From assembly GCA_964549615.1 (NCBI GenBank), contig CAZJVP010000090.1, positions 8,107 to 72,106 of the forward strand: DNA of 64,000 nt, written 5' to 3'. The notes beneath the pieces are model-generated. The model had not been told where the DNA came from and did no database searches. It saw only the letters and a list, made by a program, of their open reading frames with translations. Below, one piece after another: positions 1 to 45,235 of this stretch (position 1 is the first letter of the stretch; each line of letters begins with the position of its first letter). This DNA comes from an uncultured Thermococci archaeon. GTDB taxonomy: Archaea > CAYQAE01 > CAYVLA01. The position numbers and the translations under genes were made by a program.

Positions 1-801
1 CGTAGTTGGACACGCCATAGCTCCAGTAGCCGGGCCCTTCCTCGCACCCGCCGCCCTGGTCGAAGCTTCGCAGATAGCAGTTCATGGATCTGATGCACTT
101 CTCGATCATTGCTGCGAGCCTTCGGCGTTCCTGCATCTCCAGCAGGGCCGACCCGACGACCCCGCAGTTGCACACTGCCGTCCAGTTGTTCACATGCCCT
201 CTGCCTCCGCCGAACATCCACCAGAGATCGTCGTGCTCCAGGTAGGGCCGCCAGCATCTCCTGTCGATCTCGTACAGGATCCGCTGCCTGATCATTGGAT
301 CATGCTCGTCCAACCTGTCACCCATGATGTAAGCCGCCTCGGCAAGGGTTCTCGCAGTCTCAGCCGACACGAGGTCAACCCACGAGAAATCCCGGTACTC
401 GGGCAGCGATGTGCGGCTGTGGGCCGGTATCACCCAACTGCTTTCCTCACATATCGCCCATGCATGGTCCATGATGGCGTCCATGCAGCGTCCCTTGCGC
501 TCGATGCATTCCCCGATGACGAGCGATATCAGGCGCGAGCGCCTCGCATGGATGATCCCGTCGTGGGGAGACCTGTCTCCAGTCCTTGAGTAGTTGAGAT
601 AGAGCGAGGCCGGAACTGCAACGATAGGCTCCGCGAGTTCCTTGTCCAACTTCCCCAGCCATTCACCGACGGAGATTCCAAGCATCGGATTGCTGAGAAT
701 GCCTTGCCAACTACCCTCATCGCGGTACCTTGGCAGAGGAGCCCGCCCCGTCGTGTCCCTGAGGATCCGGTCGATCTCTGCGCGATCCAACTCCCTTATC
801 A
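1..801 (-). CDS. Partial CDS (runs off the left edge): heparinase II/III-like / alginate-lyase-like alpha/alpha-toroid polysaccharide lyase family protein
   Basis: Hand translation of the reverse strand gives an uninterrupted reading frame from an ATG at ~799-801 to position 1. The start reads MIRELDRAEIDRILRDTT and the frame continues ...WMFGGGRGHVNNWTAVCNCGVVGSALL...GPGYWSYGVSNY. The sequence looks protein-like and resembles N-terminal regions of heparinase II/III-type lyases; this is recalled similarity, not a search result. It is absent from the ORF track, probably because there is no in-window stop. Confidence 0.4.
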
Positions 802-937
802 TTGCCTCTCCCGCCGCGCAAGCACCTGCGGTCTTCGGCTTCGGCCGATTTAATGCCTACCCTATCGCTACTCTTTCCAGCGGCAACCAGATGTCAAAGA
901 TTTATCCAAACACGGCAACGGACCAGCCAGTGAGTCC

Positions 938-2182
938 TTGCGGGTCCCGCTCCTGGGCTTGCTGGCAATGATCGCCCTCGCCACCGCCCTACCCCTCGTG
1001 CCGGCAGGGCAATATCCGACCGGGAAGCAGCTCGTCCTCGACTTCCTCATGGTCGGTGATGTCGACGGATGGGTGAACCACCTCGGCGACGACGAGCCTG
1101 CCATCACCATGACCTTGGTCCCCTGCAGGGCATTCGCCCTGGCCATGCCCGATGCGGACCTCTACAGGCTGAGTAGGGTCTACTTCCCCCGGACCAAGGA
1201 ACGGCTGTCCGAATTCGAGGTGCTCTTCTTCAACCACCCCAGGCTGAGCTTCTTCACGTTCCTTCAGCAGGAAATGATGGTGAACTTCGTTGCGACCAAG
1301 GGGAAGGTGTCGATCGCCTATCCGCTCAGCCACTATGAGGACGTGCAGGTCCCTTGGCTGAACAGCCCGCTCTGCAAGGCCTTCCCGGTCGATGCGGAGA
1401 GGTTCTATGCGGCCAAGACCTTGGGCCTGCCCGACGAGTTCCCGGGCTTCGCTGGCCTTGAGCTGGAGCTGGGTCGGCCCCCCGTTTTCAGCGTCTTCCA
1501 GCCGGCTGGCCTGTTTGGCGCCAAGATCTACGAAAAGGCAAGGCCCGCCTATGCGAAGGAGGGTGCAACGGTCTGGCTCACCATGACCGGCGGTCCGGCC
1601 AACGTCCCCAAGGCCCCTGCCTTCATTTCATGGCCCTACGGATCCTCCATCGCCTGGGCCTTCGGCCTGCACCCGGGAAGCCGGCTCAAGCACTGGACCG
1701 AGAAAGGGGATTGGTGGGAGCTGGCCTTCCTGAACGTCTGCATCTATACGATGGGCGAGGAGACGCTGAACTTCGATGAGCTCGTTGAGATGCGCTTGGT
1801 CAAGAGCCAGTTCGCGTTCTACCGTGGGCTCTCATCCATGTTTCAGAGCATCGTTGACTTCGTATCCACGATGGGCGCGAACACCGCCTTGGCGGAGCGA
1901 CTGCAGCTGGAGGCGGACGCGAGAAGGGCCATGGCCGAAGCCTATTACCTCTCAAGGGAGTTCGACCTTGCGAGCGAGGAGATGGAGGAAGCCTTGGAGG
2001 TTGCGCACCGGGCGACCGACGAGGCAACAAGGGCAAAGGAGCGTGCCTTGACCTGGATCTACCTCTCCGAGTGGCTCGCAACCGCTGCGGCTTCCCTGGT
2101 CTCAGCGCTGGCGGTGTGGGGGTTGATGATCAGGAGAAGGCTGTACAGAGAGGTGGGCACGACCCAGGCCAGGCACCTCTAG
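938..2182 (+). CDS. Paralog family member 1: signal peptide, R-x-Y-x-P-R-T domain and conserved C-terminal helix-TM-RRRLYR anchor module; function unknown
   Basis: 414-aa ORF. N-terminal signal-like sequence MRVPLLGLLAMIALATALPLVPA. Contains RVYFPRTKE. The C-terminus ALTWIYLSEWLATAAASLVSALAVWGLMIRRRLYREVGTTQARHL matches six other ORFs in the window. Confidence 0.75.
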   Translation: MRVPLLGLLAMIALATALPLVPAGQYPTGKQLVLDFLMVGDVDGWVNHLGDDEPAITMTLVPCRAFALAMPDADLYRLSRVYFPRTKERLSEFEVLFFNHPRLSFFTFLQQEMMVNFVATKGKVSIAYPLSHYEDVQVPWLNSPLCKAFPVDAERFYAAKTLGLPDEFPGFAGLELELGRPPVFSVFQPAGLFGAKIYEKARPAYAKEGATVWLTMTGGPANVPKAPAFISWPYGSSIAWAFGLHPGSRLKHWTEKGDWWELAFLNVCIYTMGEETLNFDELVEMRLVKSQFAFYRGLSSMFQSIVDFVSTMGANTALAERLQLEADARRAMAEAYYLSREFDLASEEMEEALEVAHRATDEATRAKERALTWIYLSEWLATAAASLVSALAVWGLMIRRRLYREVGTTQARHL

Positions 2183-2248
2183 AGGGAGGGACACCGCAGG
2201 GCCCATTGGCTGCGCACGATCCTGTCACCTGGCCCGTGGCCCGGTTTG

Positions 2249-3481
2249 CTACCTCGTTCTGAACTGGGTGGATGCTACCTGCCTGTACATGCGGCGCCGC
2301 ACCATCAGGCTCCACAGCACGAAGCCGCAGACAAGAAAGGTCGCGGTCACGGAAAGCCACTCCGACACGTAGACCCATAGCAGCGCCTCGTTCTTCACGC
2401 TCTCAGCTACCGATTCAGCATGATCCATCAGTTCCAACGCCCGTGCGGCCCGCTCCAAGGCCGCCTCGAAGTCCTGCTCGAGATAGAGGGTTGCGGCCTC
2501 GGCCTTGACGGAGTCCGCGTTCTGGAGCGCAAGGTAAACCTTCTTTGGATTTGCCCCGAACTTGTCAACGAAGTCTATGAGGGACGCAATGATTATCCTC
2601 CGGTAGGCGAAGGTGGCCATCCTGGTCCTCACCGTGTGCACCAGATCCAGGTCTACGGGTATTGGCCTCTTGGCGCAGTAGAGCATCAGGTTTGTTGCGA
2701 AATCGGGGAGGTACTCCCAGGTCAGAAAGACCGCCCCTCCTCCTGGCGTCCAGTCGCCGGTCATAGCAAATACCGTTCCGTTGCGGTACTCCCATGTTGA
2801 AAAGAAGGGATTCTCGTAGCCTTTGTGGAATCCAGCATCTATGGTAACGATCGCCAGCACCTGTGCGCCGGCCCTTGCTCTGACGATGTTGGAGTCGTAC
2901 CTGACCAGAAACGGAAGGTCCGGCCGCCAGGGGAGGCTCCTCATGAAGACATGCTCAGTGTCCAAGATCGTAACCTTGCCGCCCAGATACGATCCAGCCT
3001 CGGTGTCCACGGGCAAGACCTCACCGACCGGCGTGACCCCCCAGTCCATGTTGCCAGCTACCCCGCCGAAGGTCTCGTATCCGCCTATCATGACGAGCCC
3101 CAACCCCTCGGCCGCAACGGCGTCCCTGAACCACACGCGGTGCGCGGCGGTAAAGCTGTCGACGTTGGAGTCGCTTATGATGATCACGTCGTAGCTCTGC
3201 ACAAGCGACTCGTACGTCCTGGGCATATAGACGCGGATCGCCCTAATAATATCCTGCGCCGAGATCCCGGCGTAGTGGGCCCTTGAAGCCTGGACCGGCG
3301 TTACCTCAAGGAACGGTTCGGCCTTCATGTGGATGTACGGAGTTTGGCCCGGGTAGGGATCGCCTGTGTAGAGCACCCTCACCTTGGATGGCGTTTGGCC
3401 CGTCGCGAAAGGCAGGAGCAGAGATATGAGAAACATCACGAAGAGGGATGAGGCAACGCGTAGCATCGGCGTCCACCTCAA
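2249..3481 (-). CDS. Paralog family member 2 (secreted, C-terminally anchored; predicted flavodoxin/GATase1-like fold)
   Basis: 410 aa. Signal peptide MRWTPMLRVASSLFVMFLISLLLPFATG. Motifs RVLYTGDPYPGQTPY, RVYMPRTYE, YDVIIISDSNV, GLGLVMIGGYETFGG. C-terminus ALLWVYVSEWLSVTATFLVCGFVLWSLMVRRRMYRQV. A TATA-like tatttaag lies ~50 nt upstream. Confidence 0.8.
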   Translation of the reverse strand: MRWTPMLRVASSLFVMFLISLLLPFATGQTPSKVRVLYTGDPYPGQTPYIHMKAEPFLEVTPVQASRAHYAGISAQDIIRAIRVYMPRTYESLVQSYDVIIISDSNVDSFTAAHRVWFRDAVAAEGLGLVMIGGYETFGGVAGNMDWGVTPVGEVLPVDTEAGSYLGGKVTILDTEHVFMRSLPWRPDLPFLVRYDSNIVRARAGAQVLAIVTIDAGFHKGYENPFFSTWEYRNGTVFAMTGDWTPGGGAVFLTWEYLPDFATNLMLYCAKRPIPVDLDLVHTVRTRMATFAYRRIIIASLIDFVDKFGANPKKVYLALQNADSVKAEAATLYLEQDFEAALERAARALELMDHAESVAESVKNEALLWVYVSEWLSVTATFLVCGFVLWSLMVRRRMYRQVASTQFRTR

Positions 3482-3767
3482 GAGGTTGGGCGAGAGCGCC
3501 TTGGGCGTGTGCCCTACTTAAATAGCTTCGCTCAGAAACTCAGAAACCAAGAAACCGGTTCTCCCCAAAGCCGGATGTGGAGGCGCGATGCAGGGGACTG
3601 GCAATTCGGTAACCATGGCAAGGGTACAGACGATGTCAAAGTCTTGGCTGCCTCGGTGCAGATCCTTCATCGTGCCCAGGGATACGAAATATCAAGACTG
3701 TGCTGGAAGCCCGCGTTCTCGCGGCCGCCAGCCGACGAAAGGTGAAGGTAGCCTATGCTACGATCTT

Positions 3768-4184
3768 TCACTTGGGGAGCCATCCTGAGGTTCTCAGGAT
3801 CTCCTGAACCTTGCTGAGAACGAAGACCGCATCGCGATGCGCCTGTCTTGCCTCGCGTTCCCCATACAGTTTCTCGCCGTAGAAGGCAGGACCCCTCTCC
3901 TCACAGAGACGAGTGCACACCCAAGCCATCCTGTCCAGCATTTCCCGATCCACCTCCCCGATCTTCTTCCGCACGGCGTCTGCGAAGACCCTGCCGACGT
4001 CGTGGATCTTCGGGTACTCAACGCCCAAAACAGCAAGTCCTCCCTTCAAAGCAAGCTCGGCAACCTCCTGGGCGCGTCTTACCGCCATGCTGAAATCGCC
4101 TTCTCGCAGTGCACCCTCAAGGTCCCGCTTACAAAGCCTCTCTGCGCTTAGAAGGAGGTCCTGTCCTTTCTTGCGGTTGTTCAT
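3768..4184 (-). CDS. HEPN-domain protein (toxin component of a HEPN/MNT pair)
   Basis: Alpha-helical protein carrying an R-x4-6-H-like motif (REARQAHRD). The start is taken at M18 of the track ORF (MNNRKKG); its ATG overlaps the TGA of the upstream MNT gene in an ATGA arrangement. Confidence 0.65.
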   Translation of the reverse strand: MNNRKKGQDLLLSAERLCKRDLEGALREGDFSMAVRRAQEVAELALKGGLAVLGVEYPKIHDVGRVFADAVRKKIGEVDREMLDRMAWVCTRLCEERGPAFYGEKLYGEREARQAHRDAVFVLSKVQEILRTSGWLPK

Positions 4185-4747
4185 AAGCTGAATACCTCGC
4201 CGGGCTTTAGGTCTGGTTTCAGATCCCAGTACCATGTCCCGTCGTCCAGCCAGACCCTCTTCGACCCTAGCTGCCTGAGACGTTGCTTCACCTCCTCAAG
4301 CCTTTGGGCGAAGAAACCGCCGCGATCGTGGAGTATCCTTGCGTCCTCCACCATGTCCAGGTAGATGTACCTGTTCTCCCTTGCCTCCTTCATCGACAGG
4401 ATGAGGTAACTGATTCTGGGTTCGGTGCCCAGACTTCTCATCGATCTCCTGAACACATCCTCTTCGCGGAGGCGGGACTGTACATCGAGAACCCGGTCCA
4501 AACGGCGGTGATAGTTCCTAGCCGGGTTCCTGATTATCAACAGAAGGTCGATGTCGCTCTCAGGCTTTGCCACGCCTCTAGCCACGGAGCCGTACAGGAC
4601 GACGGAGACCAGGGATTCCCCCAGTGTCTCTTTCAGCAACTCCACGAGCTTCTCTAAGAGCTCGCTGTAGAATTCAAACCCGAGCATCTGGCCGTTCCTC
4701 GTCCTCCTCAAGGTTGCGCACCGCTTTGCCGGACCATGCGCAGACAT
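4181..4747 (-). CDS. Minimal nucleotidyltransferase (MNT, Pol-beta superfamily); antitoxin partner of HEPN
   Basis: The motif LVSVVLYGSVARGVAKPESDIDLLLII is the classic GS...D.D nucleotidyltransferase signature. Start is ambiguous: TTG at 4777, ATG at 4747 or ATG at 4687. Confidence 0.7.
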   Translation of the reverse strand: MSAHGPAKRCATLRRTRNGQMLGFEFYSELLEKLVELLKETLGESLVSVVLYGSVARGVAKPESDIDLLLIIRNPARNYHRRLDRVLDVQSRLREEDVFRRSMRSLGTEPRISYLILSMKEARENRYIYLDMVEDARILHDRGGFFAQRLEEVKQRLRQLGSKRVWLDDGTWYWDLKPDLKPGEVFSL

Positions 4748-5133
4748 GACGATGTGACTATACCAGCGCGCAAACAACGGTGAAGGACCTCTTAAAGCTT
4801 AGCTTGGTTCGGTTCCTTGGGCGAGGGCACCAAGTGGCGTGGGGATCCAGTTGCGGAGAATACTGTCCACAAGTTCCGGGAGGACACCGTCTCTGCATGT
4901 CCAAGTCTCGCGCACGCTACACATTTGGCAAAGGATCTTGCGGGGGACACAAGGAAGCGCCTTTGGCATCCCAAGCGCTCGAATGCCTCAGAATGAGGTT
5001 GTCAGGCCGTTTGTCGTTTTCTGGGATTCACGTGTTCTGGCGTGGGACGTAGCAGGCAATGTGGTTTTCCGCGACCGTTCGTTGGCCCAGTGGGGACAGC
5101 CAGATGGGCAGCTGGGGTTCGAAAACCACTCGC

Positions 5134-7299
5134 TTACTGGTCAGTCGAATTCCCCCGCCAGATCAGCTTAGCAGGGATGGCGTAGAGCTCGTCCACCCCC
5201 TCACGAAGGTAGAACGGTAGTTTCTCCTTGAGCCCGATCTCGCTAGTGTCGATGTCCTTGAAGCCCAACTTCAAGGCCGGCGACCCCGGCCTGAGGTGGA
5301 AGTTCCCGTTGGCGGGATCCACGAACATCGGATCCGCCACTATGCTGTGCTGATCGTACTTCCTGTCGAGGATGGTCAGCCATCTCTCCCAAGACCCATC
5401 TGCCGGGCCGCCGCTCACGGTAAGCGGGCCGTTTGGCTTCCAGATGAGGTTGTAATCCGAAACCGCGACCCTGGTGTCGTTCCAGTTGATGAAACCGTAC
5501 ACATCGCCCTTGGCCCCCTGGATGTAGATGATGTTTCTCAGGTATTCATGGCCCTGTGCCAGCTCGCCCGCCATCTCCATGCTCCTGATGGCCGCGGCGT
5601 TGCCGGGTGCCACGACGAGTATGTTGTTCTCTATCCTGTTCCCAACACCTTTGGTGAAGATGCATTGGTCGCCCCCTATTCCCATGACGTTGTAGATGAT
5701 GTTGTTTGTAACGGTGAAGTAGTCCGCCCCGTCATCAAGGTAAATGCCGCTCTGCAGGGTAAGCCTGTAGTTACCAACGTCATGGATCAGGTTATGATCG
5801 TACGTGTTGTCCCGCCCCGGCCCCCAGCATTCCATTGCCCCGGTATCCTGGCTGTCCAGATTCACATCGTGTATGTGGTTGTAGGCTATGAGGTTGTTGT
5901 GGGAGTAGAGATAGTCGTAATGGTTCTCTCGGGTTGCGCCCTCGATTCGCTTGATGATCTCGGTTGAGATCAAGCCCTTGATGGTCGTGCCGTACCGGGG
6001 CATGTGGTGGATCTCGTTGTGCAGGATCTTGTTGTGGCCGCTCTGCGAGATCTCAACGCCGTAGCCGTGGCCGACTAGGCACCCGCAGTGGTGTATGTGG
6101 TTGTTTTCCACGACGTTGTCATGGTTCACATCCGGCCCGCCGCCCACCCAGTATCCGGTCAGGGAGACGCCGTGCTGCCCATTGAACCGGATCAGGTTGC
6201 CGTAGACCACGATCCCTTGGGCGTGGTACGCTATCATCACCCCGTTGAGCCCCCCATTCTCTATCCGGCAGTACTTGACCGAGCAGTTCTCGGCCCCGCT
6301 TATTTCGACCACGTGCTTATTGCAGATGCCGAGCAAGAGGCCCTCGAGATGGACGTTCCTGACGGGTCTCTCGCTGGATCCCTTGATGAGAACCACATTA
6401 TCGGCGGTCGAGACCACCATCGTCTGATCCCCAATGGGTTCGCGGCTTGGCCAGCAGTAGACGTAGCCCTTGCTCAAGCTTATCTGGGCCTCGCCCGGAT
6501 CGTCAAGAAACGCAAGCACGTTCCTGATGAAGTAGCGATTGCCCGGCGTCATGTCGTAGCCAGAGGCGGTTCCCATGGTGATGATCCTAGCCTCCGGGTC
6601 GACGTCGACTATGGGTTTCTCGGCCGAGAACCAGTCGTGCCCGGGCCAGATGAAAACCCTAGCGTCGGCGAAGTCCAAGCCGCTCGGTTCCAGGTCGGTG
6701 GGCTGGTAGTAGAAGGCCGTCTTTTCCTGTCCTGGGACCGGCCCGGCGATCTTGAAGTAGTCCCATTCGGGCTTGCGCGCCAGTTCCATCCTCCGCCCGT
6801 TCTCGAAAACTTGGAGGGGTTTCGTCCCGTTGGGTATCGGCGCTCGCCAGATCCCGTGCTGGTGTGGGGCCCAGTCGGTTAACCTCAGCCCTCCAACCAG
6901 GCTAGGCGTCTCCGCCGGGTACGCGGCGTACGTTATCGAATGCTCCTCGGTACCCGAATCCTCGGGTCCCAATGCGAATCCCTCCGGAAGGTAGTAGGTA
7001 CCCCCTCTGACCAAGACCCTTACGTCCTTGGTCAGGTTTTCGGCGACGATTCTCCGAACCTCATCGCGGGCCCTCTGAAGGGTGGCGAAAGGCCCATCCG
7101 TCCTCGCGCGGTTCGGTGAAGGAAGCGTGCCTGACCATGAATCATTGCCGTTCGTTGCCACGTAGAAAGTCAACTCCGCCTGTTCCCTGCGCCTCAAAAT
7201 CATCGACCCGAATGCCAGTGCAACCAGCGCGATTAGGATCACTCCGGCTACCTCCCTTCTGGGCAACAACGACGATCCCGCCCTGCTGAAGACCTGCAT
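5134..7299 (-). CDS. Right-handed parallel beta-helix (pectate-lyase-like) repeat protein, N-terminally membrane anchored/secreted
   Basis: 721 aa. N-terminal TM segment, then FYVATNGNDSWSGT...PFATLQRA, as typical for PbH1 proteins. Many repeats of the type NNIIYNV / HDNVVENNHIHHCG / NLIHDVG. Confidence 0.7.
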   Translation of the reverse strand: MQVFSRAGSSLLPRREVAGVILIALVALAFGSMILRRREQAELTFYVATNGNDSWSGTLPSPNRARTDGPFATLQRARDEVRRIVAENLTKDVRVLVRGGTYYLPEGFALGPEDSGTEEHSITYAAYPAETPSLVGGLRLTDWAPHQHGIWRAPIPNGTKPLQVFENGRRMELARKPEWDYFKIAGPVPGQEKTAFYYQPTDLEPSGLDFADARVFIWPGHDWFSAEKPIVDVDPEARIITMGTASGYDMTPGNRYFIRNVLAFLDDPGEAQISLSKGYVYCWPSREPIGDQTMVVSTADNVVLIKGSSERPVRNVHLEGLLLGICNKHVVEISGAENCSVKYCRIENGGLNGVMIAYHAQGIVVYGNLIRFNGQHGVSLTGYWVGGGPDVNHDNVVENNHIHHCGCLVGHGYGVEISQSGHNKILHNEIHHMPRYGTTIKGLISTEIIKRIEGATRENHYDYLYSHNNLIAYNHIHDVNLDSQDTGAMECWGPGRDNTYDHNLIHDVGNYRLTLQSGIYLDDGADYFTVTNNIIYNVMGIGGDQCIFTKGVGNRIENNILVVAPGNAAAIRSMEMAGELAQGHEYLRNIIYIQGAKGDVYGFINWNDTRVAVSDYNLIWKPNGPLTVSGGPADGSWERWLTILDRKYDQHSIVADPMFVDPANGNFHLRPGSPALKLGFKDIDTSEIGLKEKLPFYLREGVDELYAIPAKLIWRGNSTDQ

Positions 7300-7468
7300 G
7301 GTTCCTCGATCGCATTGAATACTGTGACGGTCGCCTGTACCGGTTGGGAAATGCCGCTAATCATCCGACGATAATCGATCTACCGGCCACCGCGTCGGGT
7401 CGGCTCTGAAGCTGGACCGAGCGACCGAGCGAGAAACACATTATAGGTTTGGCCAGCGCTGCTTCAAC

Positions 7469-7675
7469 GTGGACAGCAAGTTCGGGCCGGCCGTACCGAT
7501 TGCGATATCGATCATCGGGGGCATCGGCTGGGTCGTCTTCATACTCCTGCATGCGTTCTTCTGGTCCGAGGGTTTCACGCTCTTCCAGAACATCGTCATC
7601 GGGATCGTCTCGCTGCTGATCGTGATCGCCATCCTGGGAGTCACCTGGGTAGTTTGGGCCCTGAGAGCGGCATGA
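7469..7675 (+). CDS. Small two-TM membrane protein (hypothetical)
   Basis: 68 aa, very hydrophobic (IAISIIGGIGWVVFILL...IVIGIVSLLIVIAILGV). A TATA-like acattatagg lies ~30 nt upstream. Supported only by hydrophobicity and context. Confidence 0.3.
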   Translation: MDSKFGPAVPIAISIIGGIGWVVFILLHAFFWSEGFTLFQNIVIGIVSLLIVIAILGVTWVVWALRAA

Positions 7676-7707
7676 CCCTCCTCAGCCACCCGTGTCTCTA
7701 ATCCCCG

Positions 7708-9117: not shown

Positions 9118-9175
9118 CCTTGTTTCCTCCGGTGGAGATCACGAGGGCTCAGAGAGCATTGGCCGCGTCAGGAGG

Positions 9176-10375
9176 CTAACGCGCTCTTGTCACCTTGACC
9201 TCTCTGTACAGCCGCCTCCTGATCATCAGGGTCCACAACAGAGCCCCGCAGATCATGGCGGTTGCGGTCACCGCGAACCACTCAACCACGTAGGTCCATA
9301 GCAGCGCCCGCTCCTTGAGCGCCATCAACTGATCCGACAACGATCTGAACATCTCCTCGGTTTCCTGCAGCCTCGATAGCGCGTCAGGGTAGGCCTGCTC
9401 GAGGTAGAGCTGCTCGGCGTTCCTCTCCACAAGGCCAATCTCTACAAGGCTTCTCTCGGCGGGAGAAATCCGAGCGCCGAACTTCTCAACAAACTCCATC
9501 AGGCTAATCGCAAGCGCCCGCCTCGTGAAGTAATTGTGGAACCTCGTTCGGATGTCGTGCATGAGATCGAGGTCCTCGGGGATCTTTGCGCCAGCGTTGA
9601 GGAAGTTCATGTTGACCACGTAATCCGGGTAGAATCGCCAGTCATACATTACTGAAGTGCCCCACGCTGGCGTCCAATCCGGCGTGTGGGCGAGACCCGA
9701 ACCTTCCCCGTACTGCCAGTAGACCAGGACGGGGTGCTTTGGCTCGGCCGCCATCTGCAGGAGAATCTTGGCTCCCTCCTTGGGCTCAACGACGTTCATC
9801 CCGCCGAACGGCGGCATCGTGTTCCACGGCAGCGACCTAACGAAGGGGTCATCCGGATAGTTGGCCACCACCTTGAAGCTGATCTCGTAAGTCTTTCCAT
9901 CAACGCACTCCACAGGCAACGCCTCCTCTACGGACGAACCCTTCCATGTGGGATAGCCTTTCCCCCCGAAGGCCTCGATTCCCCCGACCATCATGAGGCC
10001 CATCCCCGTCTTCTCGACGCCGCGCTTGAACCACTCCAGCTGATCGGCCCTGTACAGCCCCCGGTTGGTATCGCTGAGAATGATCAGATCGTAGGAAGTG
10101 GTGAGGTCATCGAAGGTTCTCGGCATGTAAACCCTCATGAACTGGCGCAGCTGGCGATCGTTGTAGGTGCCTATGTGGGCATAGGTCGCGGGGATGGGCG
10201 TCCCGGTGAAGGACGGCTCCTCCATCATGTAGGTGTAGGGGGTTGGACCCCATGCATCGCCGATGTAGAGGATCCTGATCCTGTTGGTTACCGGATCCCT
10301 GCGGACATCGCGGCCGCATGCTCCTGGGATCTGGGCAGTTATCAAAACCAGGACAACAGCGCATGCGGCTCTCAT
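9176..10375 (-). CDS. Paralog family member 3
   Basis: RIRILYIGDAWGPTPYTYM, RVYMPRTFDD, YDLIILSDTN, GMGLMMVGGIEAFGG. C-terminus ALLWTYVVEWFAVTATAMICGALLWTLMIRRRLYREVKVTRAR. Start chosen at M44 of the track ORF (MRAACAVVLVLITAQIPGACG, signal peptide) because a ttttttatc TATA element lies ~30 nt upstream. Confidence 0.8.
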   Translation of the reverse strand: MRAACAVVLVLITAQIPGACGRDVRRDPVTNRIRILYIGDAWGPTPYTYMMEEPSFTGTPIPATYAHIGTYNDRQLRQFMRVYMPRTFDDLTTSYDLIILSDTNRGLYRADQLEWFKRGVEKTGMGLMMVGGIEAFGGKGYPTWKGSSVEEALPVECVDGKTYEISFKVVANYPDDPFVRSLPWNTMPPFGGMNVVEPKEGAKILLQMAAEPKHPVLVYWQYGEGSGLAHTPDWTPAWGTSVMYDWRFYPDYVVNMNFLNAGAKIPEDLDLMHDIRTRFHNYFTRRALAISLMEFVEKFGARISPAERSLVEIGLVERNAEQLYLEQAYPDALSRLQETEEMFRSLSDQLMALKERALLWTYVVEWFAVTATAMICGALLWTLMIRRRLYREVKVTRAR

Positions 10376-10500
10376 TCTGTAAGTACCGTTTCGGGCCCAC
10401 GATAAAAAACCTACGTTCCTGCCTGGAACTGCCCACCCGGACATCGTCGCGGCCGGCCTGTTGTCCAGACGCCACATCACTCCCCAACCGATCGAGACCT

Positions 10501-11400
10501 TCAACCTCGCCGAAGTCCCAGCAGTCTTACAGCATTCTCACGTGCTATCTTCCTAAAGACCCTCCTATCGATGTCCCCCGAGTCCTTCAACTCGAGCAGG
10601 AGATCAACCAACGGGGTTGGATTGTCCGGCGCACAGATGTCCAGGCCGAAGAGGAGCCGGTCCTCGAACTCGTTGAGGAAGCGCACGGCATTCTCCTTGT
10701 CCCTAGCAAGGGCATTGTAGCCGCTCCGCGCCGATAGATCCCCGTAGAGGTTTGGGTAACGCCTCATCAACCTCTGCACCGCGCCCTCCTGCCTGACTGG
10801 GTAGCTGGGATATCCCTTCCTATCCTCAGGCTTTCTAAGTCTGGCGATCTCGGCCCAGAACGGGGGCCCGTGGCCGAGGAAGATGAGATTAGGGAATGCC
10901 CTCAGGCAATGCTCAAGCTGCGGAAGTCCCGGTTCGTCGTACAGGCCGTATGCACAACCTATCCGCGTTGCCATGTCGAATGTTAGAGGCAAGCCAACAT
11001 TTTCGACCCACCTGAAGAGATTCTGCACCATCGGGTGCAGGAAGGGCATGTTGGGCATGACCTCGCCAACCCCCTTGCAACCGCAATCGCGGTAGTGCCT
11101 GAGCAGCTCACCGAGGGGAGCATCCACGGAATTGGTCATGGCGCGAGGATCCAGGTTGCAGAACGGGATGAAACGCCCGCCGGATGTTTCGGCGATCTCG
11201 AGTACTTCTTCGTTGGATTGGGGGAGGTAGACCTCGGGGCTGACCAGGGGCAGAAGGACGGCGCGCTCCACACCGATCGCGTCGTAGCGTTCAACCAACT
11301 GGCTGGGCGTGCAGAAGTTGCGCGGCCCAACTCGCCTGTAGGCATGGGCGTGGATATCGATGAACACCATCGTCCTCCCTCGCAGGCCCTTGGCTAACAA
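10501..11400 (-). CDS. Amidohydrolase-2 family metal-dependent TIM-barrel hydrolase
   Basis: MVFIDIHAHAY... is a His-x-His metal-binding start typical of PF04909-like amidohydrolases. Likely cytoplasmic. Start may be M11. Confidence 0.6.
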   Translation of the reverse strand: MLAKGLRGRTMVFIDIHAHAYRRVGPRNFCTPSQLVERYDAIGVERAVLLPLVSPEVYLPQSNEEVLEIAETSGGRFIPFCNLDPRAMTNSVDAPLGELLRHYRDCGCKGVGEVMPNMPFLHPMVQNLFRWVENVGLPLTFDMATRIGCAYGLYDEPGLPQLEHCLRAFPNLIFLGHGPPFWAEIARLRKPEDRKGYPSYPVRQEGAVQRLMRRYPNLYGDLSARSGYNALARDKENAVRFLNEFEDRLLFGLDICAPDNPTPLVDLLLELKDSGDIDRRVFRKIARENAVRLLGLRRG

Positions 11401-11609
11401 CCTCTAATAGTTTTGGCCGGCAAGACCTGCCGAGGCCTTCTGCAAGACGCCCGTGAGCCGCAGAACGATAGCCCTCACCCCGGCCGATCACCATCGAAGC
11501 ATGAAAGTCGACGGTCACGGCGTTTCGTCCACGGGACGGAGAACAACGCAGCTGCGGCCTTGCATCAAGCATGAGACCCGGCCGTCACGCCAGCCGTACG
11601 CCTAGCACA

Positions 11610-12812
11610 TCACTCAACCGCCCTCGTCATCCCAACCTCCCTGTAGAGGGCTCTCCTCACCATCAGCCACCAGACAAGTGTCCCCGCCATGGTGGCGGTG
11701 GCCGACACAACGCACCACTCCGCCACGTGCACCCACAGCAGTGCCTCCTTCTTGACCTTCATCATCTCCGCCTCCAGCACCGGATACTGTTTCAGCACGT
11801 CCTCGAGCATGTCGGCCGCGGCCACCGGGTCGTTGTCCGTGACGTAGGCCTCCCGTGCTTCCTTAACCTTCTCCTCCAAGGCATCGAACTTGCGCTCGAC
11901 GACGTTCACCTTCCCGCCGAAGCTCTCTATGAACTCCAACGTCGAAGCCGTGATGATCTTCCTGATCCTGGTCTCAACGAAGAGCTTCCTGGCCCTGTGC
12001 GCTGCGTCAAGATCCCCCGGCACCGGCTCGTCCGCGACGAAGAGCACCTGGTTGTAGACGAGATCCGGCCCGTACTCCCAGACCCTCACCTCATTCCGCA
12101 TGTTGTCCCAGCCGTGGTCTATCTGGAGGGTGTTCCCCCTGCCGAACTTCCCGGTCACGACGGCCGGCGTGCCCCTTCCTCTCCACTCGGCATCCACGAC
12201 GCTCCCGGGCCTGGGAAACAGGTCACCTTGGTGGCCCGAGTTTATCGGTATCTCCTCGATGCCAGGCAGGTTGAAGATCGGATCCCTCCTTAGAATCTTG
12301 TAGTATGTCCTGCCCTTGTTCGCCGGGATGTCGGTGGATAAGTCCACCTCGGCCGGGAAGGCCTGGTAGAGGGTTGTCTTCATCCACATGTCCATGTAGT
12401 TGGAGCCGGCGCCCCAGTTGGCAAATTCGATGAGTCCTAAGCCCAGGCCAACCTCCTCGACGGCCCGCCTGAAGTTCTGTATGTGGGAGCCTTCAAGCGC
12501 CAACGGGCCGAAATCTTCGAACATCATCGCGTCGTATCCCTCCGCAAGGGCCTTGAAGGTTCGAGGGATGTAGAGGCGCGTGAGCCTCTTTGCCTCGGAA
12601 AGCTGGATGTGCTGGGTCGAGCAGGGCACTATGGCCAGGTCGAACCTCGGCTCCGCGGCCAGCCAGTCAAGGAAAACCGTATTCCAGAAGTAGTACTCGC
12701 CAAGGAAAAGGACCCTTATCCGGCCCGTTCCGGGTTCCACGCGACAATCAACCGGCGAGAAGTTCACGGTTGCAAGAAGCAGAAGGAGAATGGTGCCGGT
12801 CCGAGAAAGCAC
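11610..12812 (-). CDS. Paralog family member 4 (divergent subgroup)
   Basis: Signal peptide MLSRTGTILLLLLATVNFSPVDC. GRIRVLFLGE, RLYIPRTFK, YDAMMFEDF, GLGLGLIEF. C-terminus ALLWVHVAEWCVVSATATMAGTLVWWLMVRRALYREVGMTRAVE. Confidence 0.75.
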   Translation of the reverse strand: MLSRTGTILLLLLATVNFSPVDCRVEPGTGRIRVLFLGEYYFWNTVFLDWLAAEPRFDLAIVPCSTQHIQLSEAKRLTRLYIPRTFKALAEGYDAMMFEDFGPLALEGSHIQNFRRAVEEVGLGLGLIEFANWGAGSNYMDMWMKTTLYQAFPAEVDLSTDIPANKGRTYYKILRRDPIFNLPGIEEIPINSGHQGDLFPRPGSVVDAEWRGRGTPAVVTGKFGRGNTLQIDHGWDNMRNEVRVWEYGPDLVYNQVLFVADEPVPGDLDAAHRARKLFVETRIRKIITASTLEFIESFGGKVNVVERKFDALEEKVKEAREAYVTDNDPVAAADMLEDVLKQYPVLEAEMMKVKKEALLWVHVAEWCVVSATATMAGTLVWWLMVRRALYREVGMTRAVE

Positions 12813-13211
12813 GGGCGGGGCTTGAGGCAGAGTAATTTATGGATTTCTTCGCCCTTGCTCATCGGCGGGGAATCTGAAGTAAGCTCCCTTCACCTGACGG
12901 TGCCCACCAAGCACGCACCTCGGACCGATGATTGATCCGGACCCTTTACCCGCGGTCCCTAGAATACCTTACGATCGCTTTGCCACATCGCCCGAAAGGG
13001 CCGATTCGCCGGACGCTGAATCGTGGCAAAATCCATGGATCTTTCGCGGCAACGAGACATGGAGGCAACCTAGCGCCGACGGCGGAATTGGTTTCCCAGG
13101 TCGTACGGTGGATCACAGGCGCGGATCCGTTTGCACTCACCAAACAAAATAAATGGGATGATGCCTAGCGCGTAAGCGATCCTTCAGCTCACCCAACACC
13201 CGGAGATCACA

Positions 13212-14456
13212 ATGAATTCAGGCGGTTCGGCCCACCTCGCGACAGGAAGGGATCTTTCCCTAGCCTCCCGGTGCGGGCTAGCTCTCATCACATTCGCGCT
13301 CCTCGCATCACCGTTTGTCACCCATTCAAGGACTGACCCCGACACGGGAAGGATAAGGGTCATCTTCCTCGGCGAAGTCAAGCCTGCGCAGTTCCCTTTC
13401 CCCTCTTGGATAGAGGCCGAGCCCAAGTTCACGCTGCGGCGCGTTCCATGCGACATAGAATGGTTCTCGGAAACTGATGCCCGTAGGTTCGCCCGCCTAT
13501 ATCTACCGAGGACCTATAAGGACCTAGTAGACCACTACGATGCCATCATCTTCGAGGACTTCACGCTGAGAATCCTTCCGGAAGGGACCTTGGAGAGGTT
13601 CCAGAAGGCCATAGGCGAGGATGGCCTTGGAATCGCCTTGGTCGAATACGTCTACTGGTCCGGCAACCTGAACGAGATCGACAGGTGGATGCAGTCAAGC
13701 TTTTACGATGTGTTTGCTGCGGATGTGGTCTTCGGGAGCGCCACCGACGTTGGGCGAAGGTTCTACGAGGTGTTGAGAAAGGAGCCCATCTTCGGCGTAC
13801 CTGATATCTCAAAATGGGCTATGAACGGCGCAAGCCACGGAGACCTCAGGGCAAGGGAGGGCGCAACCGTGGAAGCAATCTGGAGCCAGAGGAAGACGGA
13901 GGCCGTCGTCACGCGCAGCTACGGCAAGGGCTCGGTCATACAGATATCCCACGGTTGGGACAACATCCCGTCCGAAACCGTCATCGGGTATGAGTACCTT
14001 CCGGACCTGATCTTCAACGAGCTCTTCTTCACGGCAAAGGTTGCCCCTCCCGAGGACCTTGCCATGGTCCACACGATCAGGGTCGATCTCATCCAGATTG
14101 CCCAGAGAAGGGAGTCTGCGGTCGCGCTTCTGGATTTCGTTGACAGGTTCGGAGCGAACACTGCAAGGTTGGAGAGAATGCTTGGAGACCTTGACGGTGT
14201 GGTCAAGCAGGCGGAGAAGGATTATATCCTGTCAAGGTATGCCGAAGCACAGGAAGCCCTCCAACGGGCGACCGAGGGATACGCCCGGTTCTCCGATTCC
14301 GCGGTTGACCTGAAGAACCGTGCCATGCTTTGGATCTATGTCATCGAATGGATCACCGTTGCGGCTACCCTCATGATCTGCTTGGAAGCCGTCTGGATCC
14401 TCATGGTAAGGAGAAGGCTCTACAGGGCGGTGCACGTAACAAGGGCGGTCGGCTAG
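13212..14456 (+). CDS. Paralog family member 5 (divergent subgroup, pairs with member 4)
   Basis: GRIRVIFLGE, RLYLPRTYK, YDAIIFEDF. C-terminus AMLWIYVIEWITVAATLMICLEAVWILMVRRRLYRAVHVTRAVG. Divergently transcribed from member 4, with a shared 400-bp intergenic region. Confidence 0.75.
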   Translation: MNSGGSAHLATGRDLSLASRCGLALITFALLASPFVTHSRTDPDTGRIRVIFLGEVKPAQFPFPSWIEAEPKFTLRRVPCDIEWFSETDARRFARLYLPRTYKDLVDHYDAIIFEDFTLRILPEGTLERFQKAIGEDGLGIALVEYVYWSGNLNEIDRWMQSSFYDVFAADVVFGSATDVGRRFYEVLRKEPIFGVPDISKWAMNGASHGDLRAREGATVEAIWSQRKTEAVVTRSYGKGSVIQISHGWDNIPSETVIGYEYLPDLIFNELFFTAKVAPPEDLAMVHTIRVDLIQIAQRRESAVALLDFVDRFGANTARLERMLGDLDGVVKQAEKDYILSRYAEAQEALQRATEGYARFSDSAVDLKNRAMLWIYVIEWITVAATLMICLEAVWILMVRRRLYRAVHVTRAVG

Positions 14457-14491
14457 GCCCGTCGCCTGCCGAGAGGAAGCGACCAAAGCAC

Positions 14492-16048
14492 TCAACGTCT
14501 CTGCGTCACGCGCCCTGATGGGTTCGTCTCTTGCGCTCCAAGGCCTTCCACAGGCGAGGCCTCGTCCAACCATCGGTTCAGTTTCGCCTCGTGCTCGGCC
14601 GACCATCCAACGTAGCAGTTGGCCATTATCTCCTCGTAGGTGGTTGCCGGATTGTCAGCGGTTCGGCTGTAGCTGGCGTCGGAAAACTCGCCTGCCACGG
14701 CCCTCCTGCGCCACTCCCTGAACGCCTGTCGATTGTAAAGCATGCAGCGGCGGTGAACCTCCTCATAGTCCACGATCGCCCTGAGCTCCCGATCCATGGT
14801 CTCGACGACATCCCTTTTCGCGCTGCTCATGTTCCGGATCTCATCCGGGTCCTCGGCCAGGTTGAAGAGCTGGGGCGGGTAGCCTGGATATGCCACGTAC
14901 TTCCAGTCGCCCTTGCGCAGCATGAACATGGTGGTGTTTGTGGACTCGCCCGTGTGCAAGGCAAGCGCCCAGTTGCGGCTCTTCAGGGTTTCGCCTCGAG
15001 CCAGTGGCAAGAGAGATTCGCCGTCCAGGTTGCCTGGCGTCGGGAGACCGGCCATCTCGGCCACCGTGGGGAATATGTCTATCAAGGATACGATGTTATC
15101 GATCGTCCGACCCTTTATGACGCCTGGCCCAACTATGACCAGCGGCACTCGGGAGGAGCCCTCGTACATGCTCATCTTGTACCAGCTTCGGTGCTCCAGC
15201 GCAAGCTCGCCGTGGTCGCTTGTGAAGATGAAGTAGGTGTTGTCCCACAGGCCCAAGTCGTCCATCATCGCGACCATGTCGCCCACCATGGCATCCGCCT
15301 CGGCGCACATCGCGTAGTATGCCGCGCGGAAAACCTTCACGATCTCAGGCGCGAACCCGTGCCTCCAATTCTTGTTGATCCGCTGATACTCCATCACAGG
15401 GTGAACTTCCTCGTCCGCCGGAGGAACCCTAACCTCGTCAAGGTCAACCCGCTCCATCCAGTACGAGGTCGTGCGGTACGGTGGATGGACGGCGGACGTT
15501 GAGATGTAGAGGAAGAAAGGTTCCTCTCGACCCGCGTGAGCGGAGAGAAAATCCTTGGCCCTGGCGACCTTCTGCCAGTCTGCCTTCCAGGCGTTCCTCT
15601 CCTTCGTCGCGATGGAAAGATCCTGGTCTCCCCGACCGTAGACCGGCAGGCGGATGTCAGCCGGACCGGTCCACGCCGTGACGCGGGCGACGTGGCTGTG
15701 GCCGCCCGACCTATAGTCGCTCTTGCCCAGCCCTATGTCTCTATAGTCCTCCGCTGCGAAGCGGTAGCCCGCTTCGTGAAGCAGGTCCATCAGCGTCCTC
15801 TCGCCCGGCTCAAGCCCCTTATGGTTGTTCCAACTCTCGCAGTGATGGGTGTAGCGACCGGACCACATATTGGCCCGGGACGGGCAGCATAGGGGATGGC
15901 TACAGTAGGTGTGACGGAACAGCACGCCCCTGGAGGCAAGGGCATCGATGTTTGGGGTGGCACGACGCATGGCGGGATGTCCCATGCATCCAAGCGCCCG
16001 GCCGTCCCAGCTCTCTGCATGGAAGAACACGAAGTTCGGCCTCGGCAT
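14492..16048 (-). CDS. Cys-type sulfatase (formylglycine-dependent arylsulfatase family), apparently cytoplasmic
   Basis: The sulfatase signature C-x-P-x-R is present as LCCPSRANMWSGRY. Start chosen at M89 of the track ORF (MPRPNFVFFHAESWDG), which has the typical sulfatase N-terminus. A TATA-like element ~25 nt upstream suggests a leaderless mRNA. No signal peptide. Confidence 0.8.
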   Translation of the reverse strand: MPRPNFVFFHAESWDGRALGCMGHPAMRRATPNIDALASRGVLFRHTYCSHPLCCPSRANMWSGRYTHHCESWNNHKGLEPGERTLMDLLHEAGYRFAAEDYRDIGLGKSDYRSGGHSHVARVTAWTGPADIRLPVYGRGDQDLSIATKERNAWKADWQKVARAKDFLSAHAGREEPFFLYISTSAVHPPYRTTSYWMERVDLDEVRVPPADEEVHPVMEYQRINKNWRHGFAPEIVKVFRAAYYAMCAEADAMVGDMVAMMDDLGLWDNTYFIFTSDHGELALEHRSWYKMSMYEGSSRVPLVIVGPGVIKGRTIDNIVSLIDIFPTVAEMAGLPTPGNLDGESLLPLARGETLKSRNWALALHTGESTNTTMFMLRKGDWKYVAYPGYPPQLFNLAEDPDEIRNMSSAKRDVVETMDRELRAIVDYEEVHRRCMLYNRQAFREWRRRAVAGEFSDASYSRTADNPATTYEEIMANCYVGWSAEHEAKLNRWLDEASPVEGLGAQETNPSGRVTQRR

Positions 16049-16294
16049 CGGCTGCTGGGATTCCCTAGGGTGAAAAAATGTATGGTTCCACCCACGGCAA
16101 TGGCTCTTGGTTCCGCGGGAAAATGCTCGCATGAGGAAGCTCAAGAGTTCCGTGTCGCGCGTTGGTTGGCTCGCCGGCCTAGGGGAGGAGTGACCGGACT
16201 TTGCTCGCTCCGCCCAGCGGGTGCATCGGCCCCCGTCTTCCCGGGAAAGAGGAAAGAGGCCAAAGTTAAAAGGCACTTCGTCGTATGGTGGAGC

Positions 16295-17557
16295 ATGGCG
16301 CACAAGATGCAAGCTGCGCCTCCCCGGGCTATGAGGCAGGCCCTACGTCGAGTTGCGTTGTGCCTGCTGTTTCTAACAGTCCCAACGGCCTGGAGCCTGG
16401 AGGACGGCAGAATCGGGATGCTTTACGTGGGGTGCGTGGCGCGCTCCATGCCGTACTGGCTGATGAGGTCGGATCCACTCTTCCGAACAACCTTCGTCCA
16501 GGCGACGATCCGCGACTTCATGCTCTTCGGACCGATGCCGGCGCCGACCATTGAGGATCTGAACAGGCTGGTCAGGCTGTACATGCCCAGGACTTACGAC
16601 GACGTCGTGGCGAACTATGACGTCATCGTGTTCTTCGAGGCCAACGTCCAAGCTGTTGCGAATCACATAGACAAACTAGCCCGGGCCGTCTCCGAGGGAG
16701 GGCTCGGCATGGTTATGACCGGGGGCTGGCAGTCGTTCGGGGGCGCCACCGGCTACCCGCCGTGGGGCGTGACGGCGATCGGCCCGCTCCTCCCAACCGA
16801 GGACGTCGTTGGAGCTTGGCACGACTCCCCCCAGCACCGCATCATCATAGACAAACCGGACAATGAGTTCATCAGAAGCCTGCCCTGGGACCTCAGCGAC
16901 CCAGCCCTGTACGGCTCGGTATGGGACCACAACCTTCTCAAGGTGAGGCCAGGGGCCGAGCAGCTTGCGCACGTCGTCTCGCCCGGATGCGATGCCCCAC
17001 TGATGGTCACATGGAGGCTTGAGGGCGGCCCCAGGACCTTCTCCCTAGCGAGCGAGGGCGGCTGGCGGCTGTTCTCCATGGCGAAGTGGAGGTACGACTA
17101 CGATTTCTGCAGCAATCTGATGATCTACCTCGACGACCGGCCAGTCCCGCAGGACATCGCGCTCGTCCAAGCCGTCAGACACAAGATCTTCGAGGTGGCG
17201 ACCAGACGATCCATGATAGTGTCCCTGCTTGATTTTTGCGAGTCGTTTGGGGCGAACACGCAGAAGATTACGAGCAAGCTGATGGAGATCGACCGGGTGG
17301 CCGTCGAGGCCCTACCTCAGTATCTCCACCTCAACTTCGAGGGCGCGCTAGAGACCTACAAGACGGCGGCCAGGATGATCGAGAACCTTGAGGGCGAAGC
17401 CATGAAGCTTAAGGACAGGGCCCTCATGTGGATCTACGTCATCGAGTGGTTGGCCGTCACGGGCACCATGCTGGTATGCGGCATAGCGCTGTGGTCGCTG
17501 ATGGTTCGCCGAAGGCTGTACCGGCAGGTTCGATATACAAGGCTTGCAGCACGCTGA
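16295..17557 (+). CDS. Paralog family member 6
   Basis: The track ORF starting at 15896 is trimmed to MAHKMQAAPPRAMRQALRRVALCLLFLTVPTAWS (signal). RLYMPRTYDD, YDVIVFFEANV, GLGMVMTGGWQSFGG. C-terminus ALMWIYVIEWLAVTGTMLVCGIALWSLMVRRRLYRQVRYTRLAAR. TATA-like aaagttaaaagg ~25 nt upstream. Confidence 0.75.
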   Translation: MAHKMQAAPPRAMRQALRRVALCLLFLTVPTAWSLEDGRIGMLYVGCVARSMPYWLMRSDPLFRTTFVQATIRDFMLFGPMPAPTIEDLNRLVRLYMPRTYDDVVANYDVIVFFEANVQAVANHIDKLARAVSEGGLGMVMTGGWQSFGGATGYPPWGVTAIGPLLPTEDVVGAWHDSPQHRIIIDKPDNEFIRSLPWDLSDPALYGSVWDHNLLKVRPGAEQLAHVVSPGCDAPLMVTWRLEGGPRTFSLASEGGWRLFSMAKWRYDYDFCSNLMIYLDDRPVPQDIALVQAVRHKIFEVATRRSMIVSLLDFCESFGANTQKITSKLMEIDRVAVEALPQYLHLNFEGALETYKTAARMIENLEGEAMKLKDRALMWIYVIEWLAVTGTMLVCGIALWSLMVRRRLYRQVRYTRLAAR

Positions 17558-17627
17558 GGATCTCGCCCGGACAGGCGCACAAGCCCAACTCCGCCGCGGC
17601 CGCAAGGCTAGGCGCAATGCACGGCCG

Positions 17628-18494: not shown

Positions 18495-18624
18495 GTAGGC
18501 TTTCCTTATCAACGGATGGTTGGTCCATGGGTTTGCGGTAGCCTGAAATATTGCATTCTAGCGAAGCCTGGGGATCTTGTTGGGCGATGACCGGTCAGCC
18601 TGGAGACACCCGGACGATCGTGGA

Positions 18625-18698: not shown

Positions 18699-18745
18699 AA
18701 AGTCTTTTATCCCGACCACATGACGCCGCGACCGGGCCAGGGCCC

Positions 18746-45218: not shown

Positions 45219-45235
45219 GGTTTTCGGGTCAACCC

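Follow-up and report, generated by a model that had tools for sequence, protein, structure and literature searches.

Does an archaeon possess its own locus for the breakdown of sulfated or acidic polysaccharides, a task that, in anoxic sediments, is commonly attributed to Bacteroidota and the bacteria of the PVC group (Planctomycetota, Verrucomicrobia and relatives)? The question is raised by a stretch of 64,000 nucleotides from an uncultured Thermococci archaeon (assembly GCA_964549615.1, contig CAZJVP010000090.1, positions 8,107 to 72,106), hereafter the window. Its first 17.6 kb (1–17.6 kb) contain six diverged, membrane-anchored paralogs interleaved with five enzyme genes, which encode a polysaccharide lyase, a sulfatase, an amidohydrolase, a parallel beta-helix protein and a glycosidase of clan GH-A. 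A preliminary description of the stretch had proposed an extracellular glycan-processing island here, and every gene that it listed exists at or near the place it was assigned. Our answer, to which we give middling credence, is that bacterial-type genes for the catabolism of acidic or sulfated glycans lie in a loose neighbourhood amid members of a surface-protein family that is lineage-specific and has undergone massive expansion. This reading draws on the homology of the lyase to polysaccharide lyase family 33 (PL33), the matches of the sulfatase, the residues and fold of the GH-A protein, the homologies of the beta-helix protein, the topology of the encoded proteins, an enrichment of sulfatases near paralogs and the conservation of sub-blocks of genes in related genomes.

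The PL33-like lyase lies at the left edge of the window (1–801, minus strand), where only an N-terminal fragment is encoded, the first 267 of 614 residues; the gene runs beyond the edge. The complete 614-residue gene is found at positions 12168–14012 of L001 (JGI metagenome 3300022548), an independent assembly of the same locus whose proteins are 99.6–100% identical. Over residues 9–596 the full protein matches the PL33 structures 8r73, 8r75, 8r6z and 8r70 with E values of 1.7e-68 to 3e-64. The catalytic residues of one such enzyme, BtPL33HA, are N238, Y291, H444 and Y470 (PMC11848413). All four are conserved in the archaeal protein, as N206, Y259, H407 and Y433; the alignment column of Y291 is pinned by the Y291A mutant chain of a PL33 structure and, residues 1–267 being the part inside the window, H407 and Y433 were read from the L001 copy. 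The lyase is thus like PL33 enzymes in its near full-length homology and its retained N/Y/H/Y catalytic set, and unlike them in being archaeal and in having no signal peptide. The published PL33 tree (PMC11848413) consists mainly of Bacteroidota, Proteobacteria and Actinobacteria (PL33_1) and of Bacillota (PL33_2). Characterised enzymes of the family cleave hyaluronan, heparosan, chondroitin sulfate or gellan. The N-terminus of the archaeal lyase, MIRELDRAEID, contains no hydrophobic segment by hydropathy, and the enzyme is predicted to be cytoplasmic because it has no export signal.

For the same reason a cytoplasmic location is predicted for two further enzymes. The first is an S1 formylglycine-dependent sulfatase (14492–16048, minus strand), which matches PF00884 at 1.3e-44 and SGSH_C at 5e-16; here and below, Pfam scans took in the long open reading frames (ORFs) treated as genes between 1 and 54.7 kb of the window. 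Its sequence contains the motif C54-C-P-S-R58, which fits the pattern C/S-x-P-x-R and, together with the Pfam match, bears out its early naming as a Cys-type sulfatase. NCBIfam matches fall below the family cut-offs. Among solved structures, choline sulfatases are nearest (1e-38), and a GalNAc-6-sulfatase (6e-34) and carrageenan sulfatases come next. The protein has no signal peptide with any start and no hydrophobic segment. A radical-SAM gene at 47655–48389 (plus strand) was considered as a sulfatase-maturating enzyme and rejected, as its best match is the anaerobic ribonucleotide reductase activase NrdG2, with 188 bits against a cut-off of 131. The second cytoplasmic enzyme is a metal-dependent hydrolase (10501–11400, minus strand; likely start 11370), rightly placed from the outset in Amidohydro_2 (PF04909, 1.5e-13); it has no sequence relative in the PDB and no hydrophobic segment by hydropathy.

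The other two enzymes are predicted to face outwards, because each carries a single N-terminal hydrophobic anchor. The parallel beta-helix protein is encoded at 5134–7299 (minus strand) by an ORF of 721 residues, for which the database record uses a different start. It matches PF13229 (Beta_helix) at 3e-15 and has one hydrophobic segment, at the N-terminus, in keeping with its first description as a membrane-anchored beta-helix protein. Its sequence matches PDB entry 9rx2, titled ‘parallel beta-helix repeat protein’, over its length (6e-70), and the GH141 enzyme BT_1002 (5mqp) only over residues 45–200 (3.5e-13). Homologues with 45–60% identity occur in Planctomycetota, Phycisphaerae, Sedimentisphaerales and Kiritimatiellae. 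Some of these bear extra domains, namely PF03422 and PF16990, which are carbohydrate-binding module families, and PF03781; one homologue with the latter domain is named a formylglycine-generating enzyme by one source. The beta-helix protein is a probable ecto-glycanase of unassigned specificity.

The GH-A glycosidase (7708–9117, minus strand), which would be anchored at its N-terminus or secreted, is recognisable from its invariant residues and its predicted fold. It has no match in Pfam, even at E values up to 5 under lenient thresholds, or in NCBIfam, and no sequence match in the PDB either alone or as a profile of 41 sequences. In the 41 homologues N179-E180-P181, H242/Y244 and E282 are invariant. 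Members of clan GH-A typically carry their acid/base and nucleophile glutamates on strands 4 and 7 of the barrel. The AlphaFold2 (AF2) model, with a predicted local distance difference test (pLDDT) score of 92.8, consists of a TIM barrel and a C-terminal beta-sandwich, and Foldseek aligns it with GH30, GH39, GH79 and GH51 structures at E values of 1e-20 to 1e-17 and 11–15% identity. Because of the invariant NEP/E pair and these fold matches, the protein is placed as a retaining glycosidase of clan GH-A. It is like the two-domain enzymes of that clan (GH30 xylanases, glucocerebrosidase, GH39 and the GH79 beta-glucuronidase and heparanase) in its (beta/alpha)8 barrel and beta-sandwich, its N-E-P acid/base and its nucleophile glutamate, and unlike them in its low identity to solved structures and its lack of any sequence-profile match. 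Of the earlier label ‘secreted GH5-like hydrolase’, the hydrolase, as a glycosidase, and its anchoring or secretion stand but the GH5 assignment is too loose: a precomputed PF00150 match exists in only some homologues and not on the window protein, and the best folds are GH30, GH39 and GH79. The protein probably represents either a family absent from Pfam and the PDB or a very distant branch of GH5/GH30. Among the named homologues, the closest (53–56% identity) belong to Hydrogenedentes and an unclassified bacterium, and more distant ones (46–50%) to Verrucomicrobia, Planctomycetota and Armatimonadota. Since the closest homologues of both outward-facing proteins are bacterial, a bacterial origin of the two genes is suggested.

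Four of the five enzymes are members or neighbours of carbohydrate-active or sulfatase families, as had been anticipated. The notion that processing is extracellular holds for two of the five, the beta-helix and GH-A proteins, but not for the lyase, sulfatase and amidohydrolase, which have no hydrophobic N-terminus.

The paralogs with which these genes are interleaved number seven in the window. Paralog 1 (938–2182, plus strand), the most divergent copy, was assigned by alignment and has transmembrane-like segments at residues 3–21 and 380–398. Paralog 2 (2249–3481, minus strand; start of the database protein 3466) and paralog 3 (9176–10504, minus strand; likely true start Met 10375) match PF07090 at 2.2e-16 and 2e-18. 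Paralogs 4 (11610–12812, minus strand), 5 (13212–14456, plus strand) and 6 (16295–17557, plus strand; the ORF opens at 15896 and Met 16295 is the likely start) were also assigned by alignment. Paralog 7 (37133–38374, minus strand; PF07090, 1.3e-6) lies outside the island and is 59% identical to paralog 2. Mutual identities of the seven span 22–59%; three exceed the Pfam cut-off of PF07090 and the other four align as homologues. Anchor-coding conserved segments of the paralogs are the sole DNA repeats in 1–18.6 kb.

Paralog 1 has the layout of a signal peptide, a GATase1-like ectodomain, a helical stalk and a C-terminal transmembrane segment. The AF2 model of paralog 2 (pLDDT 93.9, predicted template modelling score 0.88) comprises an N-terminal signal helix, an alpha/beta domain (residues 34–270), three long helices (278–395), the last of which contains the transmembrane segment, and a basic tail, RRRLYREV. 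The positive-inside rule predicts that the alpha/beta domain lies outside the cell. The ectodomain is homologous to three orphan PF07090/GATase1_like proteins of known structure, 2gk3 (STM3548), 3soz (STM1381) and 3rht (Planctomyces limnophilus), with profile E values of 1.7e-19 to 3.9e-16 and Foldseek values of about 1e-11 to 1e-10. These orphans are about 250 residues long, and the two Salmonella entries are titled cytoplasmic; the archaeal proteins, by contrast, have in addition a signal peptide, a three-helix stalk and a conserved C-terminal transmembrane segment with its tail, and through expansion of the family a genome may encode tens of them. No Cys-His-Glu triad is present, as no Cys or His is invariant or near-invariant in the ectodomains of 82 sequences. 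The segment GGxESFGG, which we take to lie at the usual nucleophile position, differs among paralogs. Function as class I glutamine amidotransferases was rejected for want of a conserved triad. Invariant positions are concentrated in an RxYxPR motif, W147 and the stalk and anchor; conservation thus centres on the latter two, while the ectodomains have diverged.

A profile of the C-terminal 136 residues matched 435 clusters among 1.84 billion (1.84e9) representative proteins. Full-length proteins with this module are all 381–468 residues long and carry it always at the C-terminus. The stalk and transmembrane segment as a generic anchor for varied ectodomains was therefore rejected; the module is restricted to one fixed architecture, and the anchor is specific to it. 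In a scan of one genome per species 190 copies were confirmed; three metagenome-assembled genomes (MAGs) account for all of the best 80, and the family seems confined to this lineage. The loci fetched from these MAGs contain, by themselves, at least 76, at least 51 and at least 26 different copies, with as many as seven arrayed in 21 kb. Orthologues in other MAGs are 76% (paralog 6, in L035), 70–74% (paralog 2), 61% (paralog 3) and 56% (paralog 1) identical, whereas paralogs 4 and 5 reach only 44% and 39%. Most window paralogs resemble an orthologue elsewhere more closely than any other copy in their own genome, which means that the family diversified long ago and that its copies have since been kept.

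More distant Foldseek matches of paralog 2 (E values of 1e-5 to 1e-3) are to the accessory GATase1-like domain of multidomain enzymes, including GH42 beta-galactosidases, a GH164 mannosidase, a GH112 phosphorylase, a beta-1,2-glucosyltransferase and the mannosidase Op5Man5. In enzymes of the GH42, GH164 and Op5Man5 types, this domain sits between the TIM barrel and the beta-sandwich. The link between ectodomain and accessory domain raises the idea that the paralogs act in trans, as anchoring or oligomerisation subunits that supply a GATase1-like domain to secreted glycosidases. Paralog 3 fits such a scheme, lying 58 nt upstream of a glycosidase that has a TIM barrel and a beta-sandwich but not that domain, with co-transcription suggested. 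However, just one of the seven window paralogs adjoins a TIM-barrel enzyme, orthologues of paralog 3 stand beside different genes in two of the related loci, L021 and L046, and no related locus contains the GH-A gene, so we consider a split-enzyme arrangement highly improbable.

The abundance of these type-I surface proteins, with their conserved stalk and anchor, admits another explanation, in which they are structural proteins of the envelope and the enzymes remodel the sulfated or uronic-acid-containing surface glycans of the cell itself. Sulfated, uronic-acid-rich S-layer glycans do occur in some archaea, which speaks for this view. Yet a cytoplasmic lyase and sulfatase would better fit the catabolism of imported fragments, and the GH-A and beta-helix proteins find their nearest homologues in bacteria of the PVC group (Planctomycetota, Verrucomicrobia) and Hydrogenedentes, which are viewed as polysaccharide degraders. 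Turnover of the cell’s own envelope is for these reasons judged very unlikely, and the catabolism of acidic or sulfated glycans remains the preferred account.

How the genes are expressed bears on whether they form a unit. TATA-like hexamers are 14-fold denser between genes than within them (6.45 against 0.47 per kb). Such an element lies 28–34 nt upstream of four candidate starts: those of paralog 4 (CATAAATTA, 28 nt), the sulfatase (30 nt), paralog 3 (TTTTTTATC, 31–34 nt upstream of 10375) and paralog 6 (at 16266, 29 nt upstream of 16295). This spacing is compatible with leaderless mRNAs, and the suggestion that several genes have TATA boxes at a leaderless distance and mostly independent promoters is upheld. 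Elements lie 37–63 nt upstream of paralogs 1 (at 901, 37 nt), 2 and 5 (at 13149, 63 nt), the PL33 gene and a nucleoside hydrolase gene; no such element was seen before the beta-helix, GH-A and amidohydrolase genes. The GH-A gene follows paralog 3 after a gap of 58 nt and has GGAGG 8–13 nt before its start. Because of this gap, the GGAGG and the missing TATA-like element, the two genes probably share one transcript, which would be the only likely operon of the cluster. The longest ORFs of paralogs 3 (9176–10504) and 6 (15896–17557) over-extend upstream, a signal-peptide-like sequence following Met 10375 and Met 16295 respectively. Since the internal Met 10375 has both this sequence and an upstream TATA-like element, the 4-nt overlap of paralog 3 with the amidohydrolase gene is probably an annotation artefact.

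The genes of the locus are accordingly only loosely associated and for the most part transcribed independently; they form neither an operon nor a polysaccharide utilisation locus (PUL) of the SusC/D type. Neither SusC nor SusD genes were found in the scanned ORFs, and the locus is without the transporter or regulator typical of a standard carbohydrate-active enzyme (CAZyme) gene cluster. The term ‘PUL-like’, used at first, is not supported: the cluster lacks a glycan transporter and a regulator, no motif is shared upstream of its genes, and the promoters are mostly independent. The likeness to Bacteroidota PULs and to the CAZyme/sulfatase clusters of PVC bacteria lies elsewhere. Genes for a lyase, a glycosidase and a sulfatase occur together (the PL33-like lyase, GH-A and beta-helix genes are co-localised within 9 kb), surface-exposed and intracellular steps are mixed, and diversified multi-copy surface proteins stand among the enzymes. 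The GH-A and beta-helix genes are, moreover, 45–60% identical to genes of Planctomycetota, Verrucomicrobia and Hydrogenedentes. Unlike in PULs, the SusC/SusD pair is missing, as expected for an archaeon without an outer membrane, no transporter or sensor-regulator lies in the cluster, promoters are mostly separate and the repeated surface protein has the unrelated PF07090-type fold. Literature searches returned no description of a comparable archaeal lyase/sulfatase locus, and none of such loci in Theionarchaea or Hadarchaeota.

Conservation of the neighbourhood was assessed in 75 related loci, with gene calls made in this analysis. In one MAG (L047 and L006) a beta-helix gene (74% protein identity), a paralog, a paralog 2 orthologue (70–74%), a second paralog and a PL33 gene (64%) follow one another. 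In L028 an amidohydrolase (36%) precedes a paralog 3-like copy after a 113-nt gap, and in L071 a sulfatase orthologue (70–73%) stands among six paralogs. The synteny with related MAGs that had been put forward as a check is therefore partial: sub-blocks recur in these three cases, but a counterpart of the GH-A gene occurs in none of the 75 loci. By Pfam, the immediate neighbours of paralogs (n = 135) include four Sulfatase genes, three GH38, three lambda-carrageenase-like propellers, two RGL11_C and two Amidohydro_2. Genes at least five genes from a paralog (n = 150) include two Sulfatase and two BNR_2 genes, the rest belonging mostly to housekeeping families. Glycan-related families are thus about three times commoner among the immediate neighbours than among these distant genes, which themselves still lie less than 10 kb from a paralog. 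Clustering de novo, with the window excluded, gave 16 sulfatases among 686 neighbourhood genes, spread over 13 of the 75 loci; of these 16, 13 have a paralog no more than two genes away (hypergeometric p = 0.0065).

The association between paralogs and glycan genes is real but modest, and chance juxtaposition is a serious rival, which we regard as possible while leaning against it. It supposes that genomes rich both in these paralogs and in CAZyme and sulfatase genes bring the two together by accident, and that the paralogs have a general role at the cell surface. In its favour, one MAG contains at least 76 copies, 59 of 154 copies adjoin another copy, the neighbours of paralogs are diverse, and the genes have independent promoters and no shared motif. 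In the window itself, the CAZyme cluster at 43–55 kb contains no paralog at all, and paralog 7 sits between the genes for aspartate kinase and CDC48. Against accident stand the enrichment of sulfatases within two genes of paralogs, the roughly threefold excess of glycan-related families among immediate neighbours, and the order beta-helix, paralog, paralog 2, paralog, PL33, which is kept at 64–74% protein identity.

Several findings weigh against our own reading and are set down together here. The choline sulfatases that are the nearest solved relatives of the sulfatase leave a carbohydrate substrate for it not established, and no sulfatase-maturating enzyme, whether an anaerobic sulfatase-maturating enzyme (anSME) or a formylglycine-generating enzyme (FGE), was found among the scanned ORFs. 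The first 17.6 kb contain no regulator domain and no glycan transporter, the only transporter nearby being an ABC system of the Bmp/PnrA type. Most genes have their own TATA-like element, and no k-mer is common to 14 upstream regions. The GH-A gene is missing beside the paralog 3 orthologues as well as from all the related loci. Most neighbours of paralogs are unrelated to glycans (URO-D-like, GNAT, M19 dipeptidase, aldo-keto reductase and AFOR genes) or have no Pfam match. Finally, PF07090 has no characterised member, and literature searches gave nothing on its function.

If the reading of glycan catabolism is nevertheless followed, the beta-helix and GH-A ecto-enzymes would break up an extracellular polymer that contains uronic acids or is sulfated. 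The resulting oligosaccharides would be imported by a transporter encoded elsewhere, and would then be desulfated and cleaved in the cytoplasm. The most likely role of the paralogs in such a pathway would be that of non-catalytic surface modules, specific for a substrate or a partner, which bind glycans or dock enzymes. Given the topology of the paralogs, their distant fold resemblance and the modest neighbourhood enrichment, the hypothesis that appeals most is that they help to capture glycans or dock enzymes, which is plausible but unproven. The original proposal that the family takes part in polysaccharide capture or processing thus gains from the sulfatase enrichment, but is tempered by the modesty of the association and by the many neighbours without a glycan connection. 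A bolder version, which we think rather doubtful, would make the anchored PF07090 family an archaeal functional counterpart of SusD-like glycan-binding proteins, marking archaeal equivalents of PULs, with the pair of paralog 3 and the GH-A gene as a split GH42-type architecture.

The archaeon is in any event equipped with a PL33-like lyase whose catalytic site is intact, an S1 sulfatase and two predicted ecto-glycanases. Were the paralogs to bind glycans or scaffold enzymes, they would define a mode of polymer capture in cells that have no outer membrane, and the family could serve as a sequence marker for such loci in archaeal MAGs. Were the association coincidental, the locus would still document, usefully if unremarkably, that an archaeon carries bacterial-type CAZyme genes.

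That the DNA is archaeal, as first supposed, follows from the marker genes detected by the Pfam scan, which encode the PolD small subunit, a tRNA-intron endonuclease, a DnaG-type Toprim protein, L10e and CDC48. The presence of the locus both in L001 and on the 124.5-kb NCBI contig shows that no chimera is involved. Three MAGs deposited under the name Candidatus Hadarchaeota archaeon are the closest genomes, and some protein homologues carry the label Theionarchaea archaeon; both groups are within the kingdom Methanobacteriati. GC content is even along the window (0.57–0.62). An origin as a mobile island finds no support, given this uniformity and the lack of tRNA genes and integrase; only a HEPN/MNT pair is present. 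No Rfam family was found in the window.

Two other gene groups recur in the related loci. One is a conserved gene pair beside the paralogs, seen for example at 6717–7565 and 7562–8554 of L014, 9591–10535 and 8599–9594 of L013, and 15484–16323 and 14520–15443 of L004. One gene encodes an N-terminally anchored protein of about 260–350 residues with no Pfam match, and 12 of its 18 copies directly adjoin a paralog (p = 9e-4); the product of the other, of about 310–370 residues, begins with a signal peptide, ends in a transmembrane segment at the C-terminus and also has an alpha/beta domain and a coiled coil. No homologue of either was found in the window. The other is the multi-copy URO-D-like family (PF01208), of which 17 copies were counted (L071:17993–19084 and 16 genes in 16 related loci) and which, in the fetched loci, is not significantly closer to paralogs than expected.

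Within the island, the preliminary description had passed over a gene pair for a HEPN protein (3768–4235; PF05168, 1.3e-14) and an MNT-type nucleotidyltransferase (4181–4777; PF01909, 4.8e-10), both on the minus strand. The pair is toxin-antitoxin-like and outside glycan metabolism. It forms an insertion that separates paralog 2 from the beta-helix gene, and is missing at the syntenic place in L047/L006.

Abutting the island at 17628–23823 are genes for an inosine-uridine nucleoside hydrolase and a Bmp/PnrA-type ABC system (18686–23823; ATPase, two permeases and binding protein), which serve nucleoside salvage and not glycan uptake. A housekeeping block follows at 25–41 kb, with genes for the DnaG-type Toprim protein, L10e, a 2-phosphoglycerate-kinase-like protein, phosphoglycerate kinase, the PolD small subunit, histidyl-tRNA synthetase (HisRS), the tRNA-intron endonuclease and CDC48. 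The second glycan-related cluster, the one devoid of paralogs, extends over 43092–54732 and encodes a weakly GH42-like protein, a LamG-domain protein, two BNR_2 (sialidase-like) proteins, a DUF6259/GH66-like protein and an MFS transporter. Of its N-termini two were inspected, those of the GH42-like protein and one BNR protein, and neither has a signal-like start. The DUF6259/GH66-like gene of this cluster overlaps the transporter gene by 4 nt.

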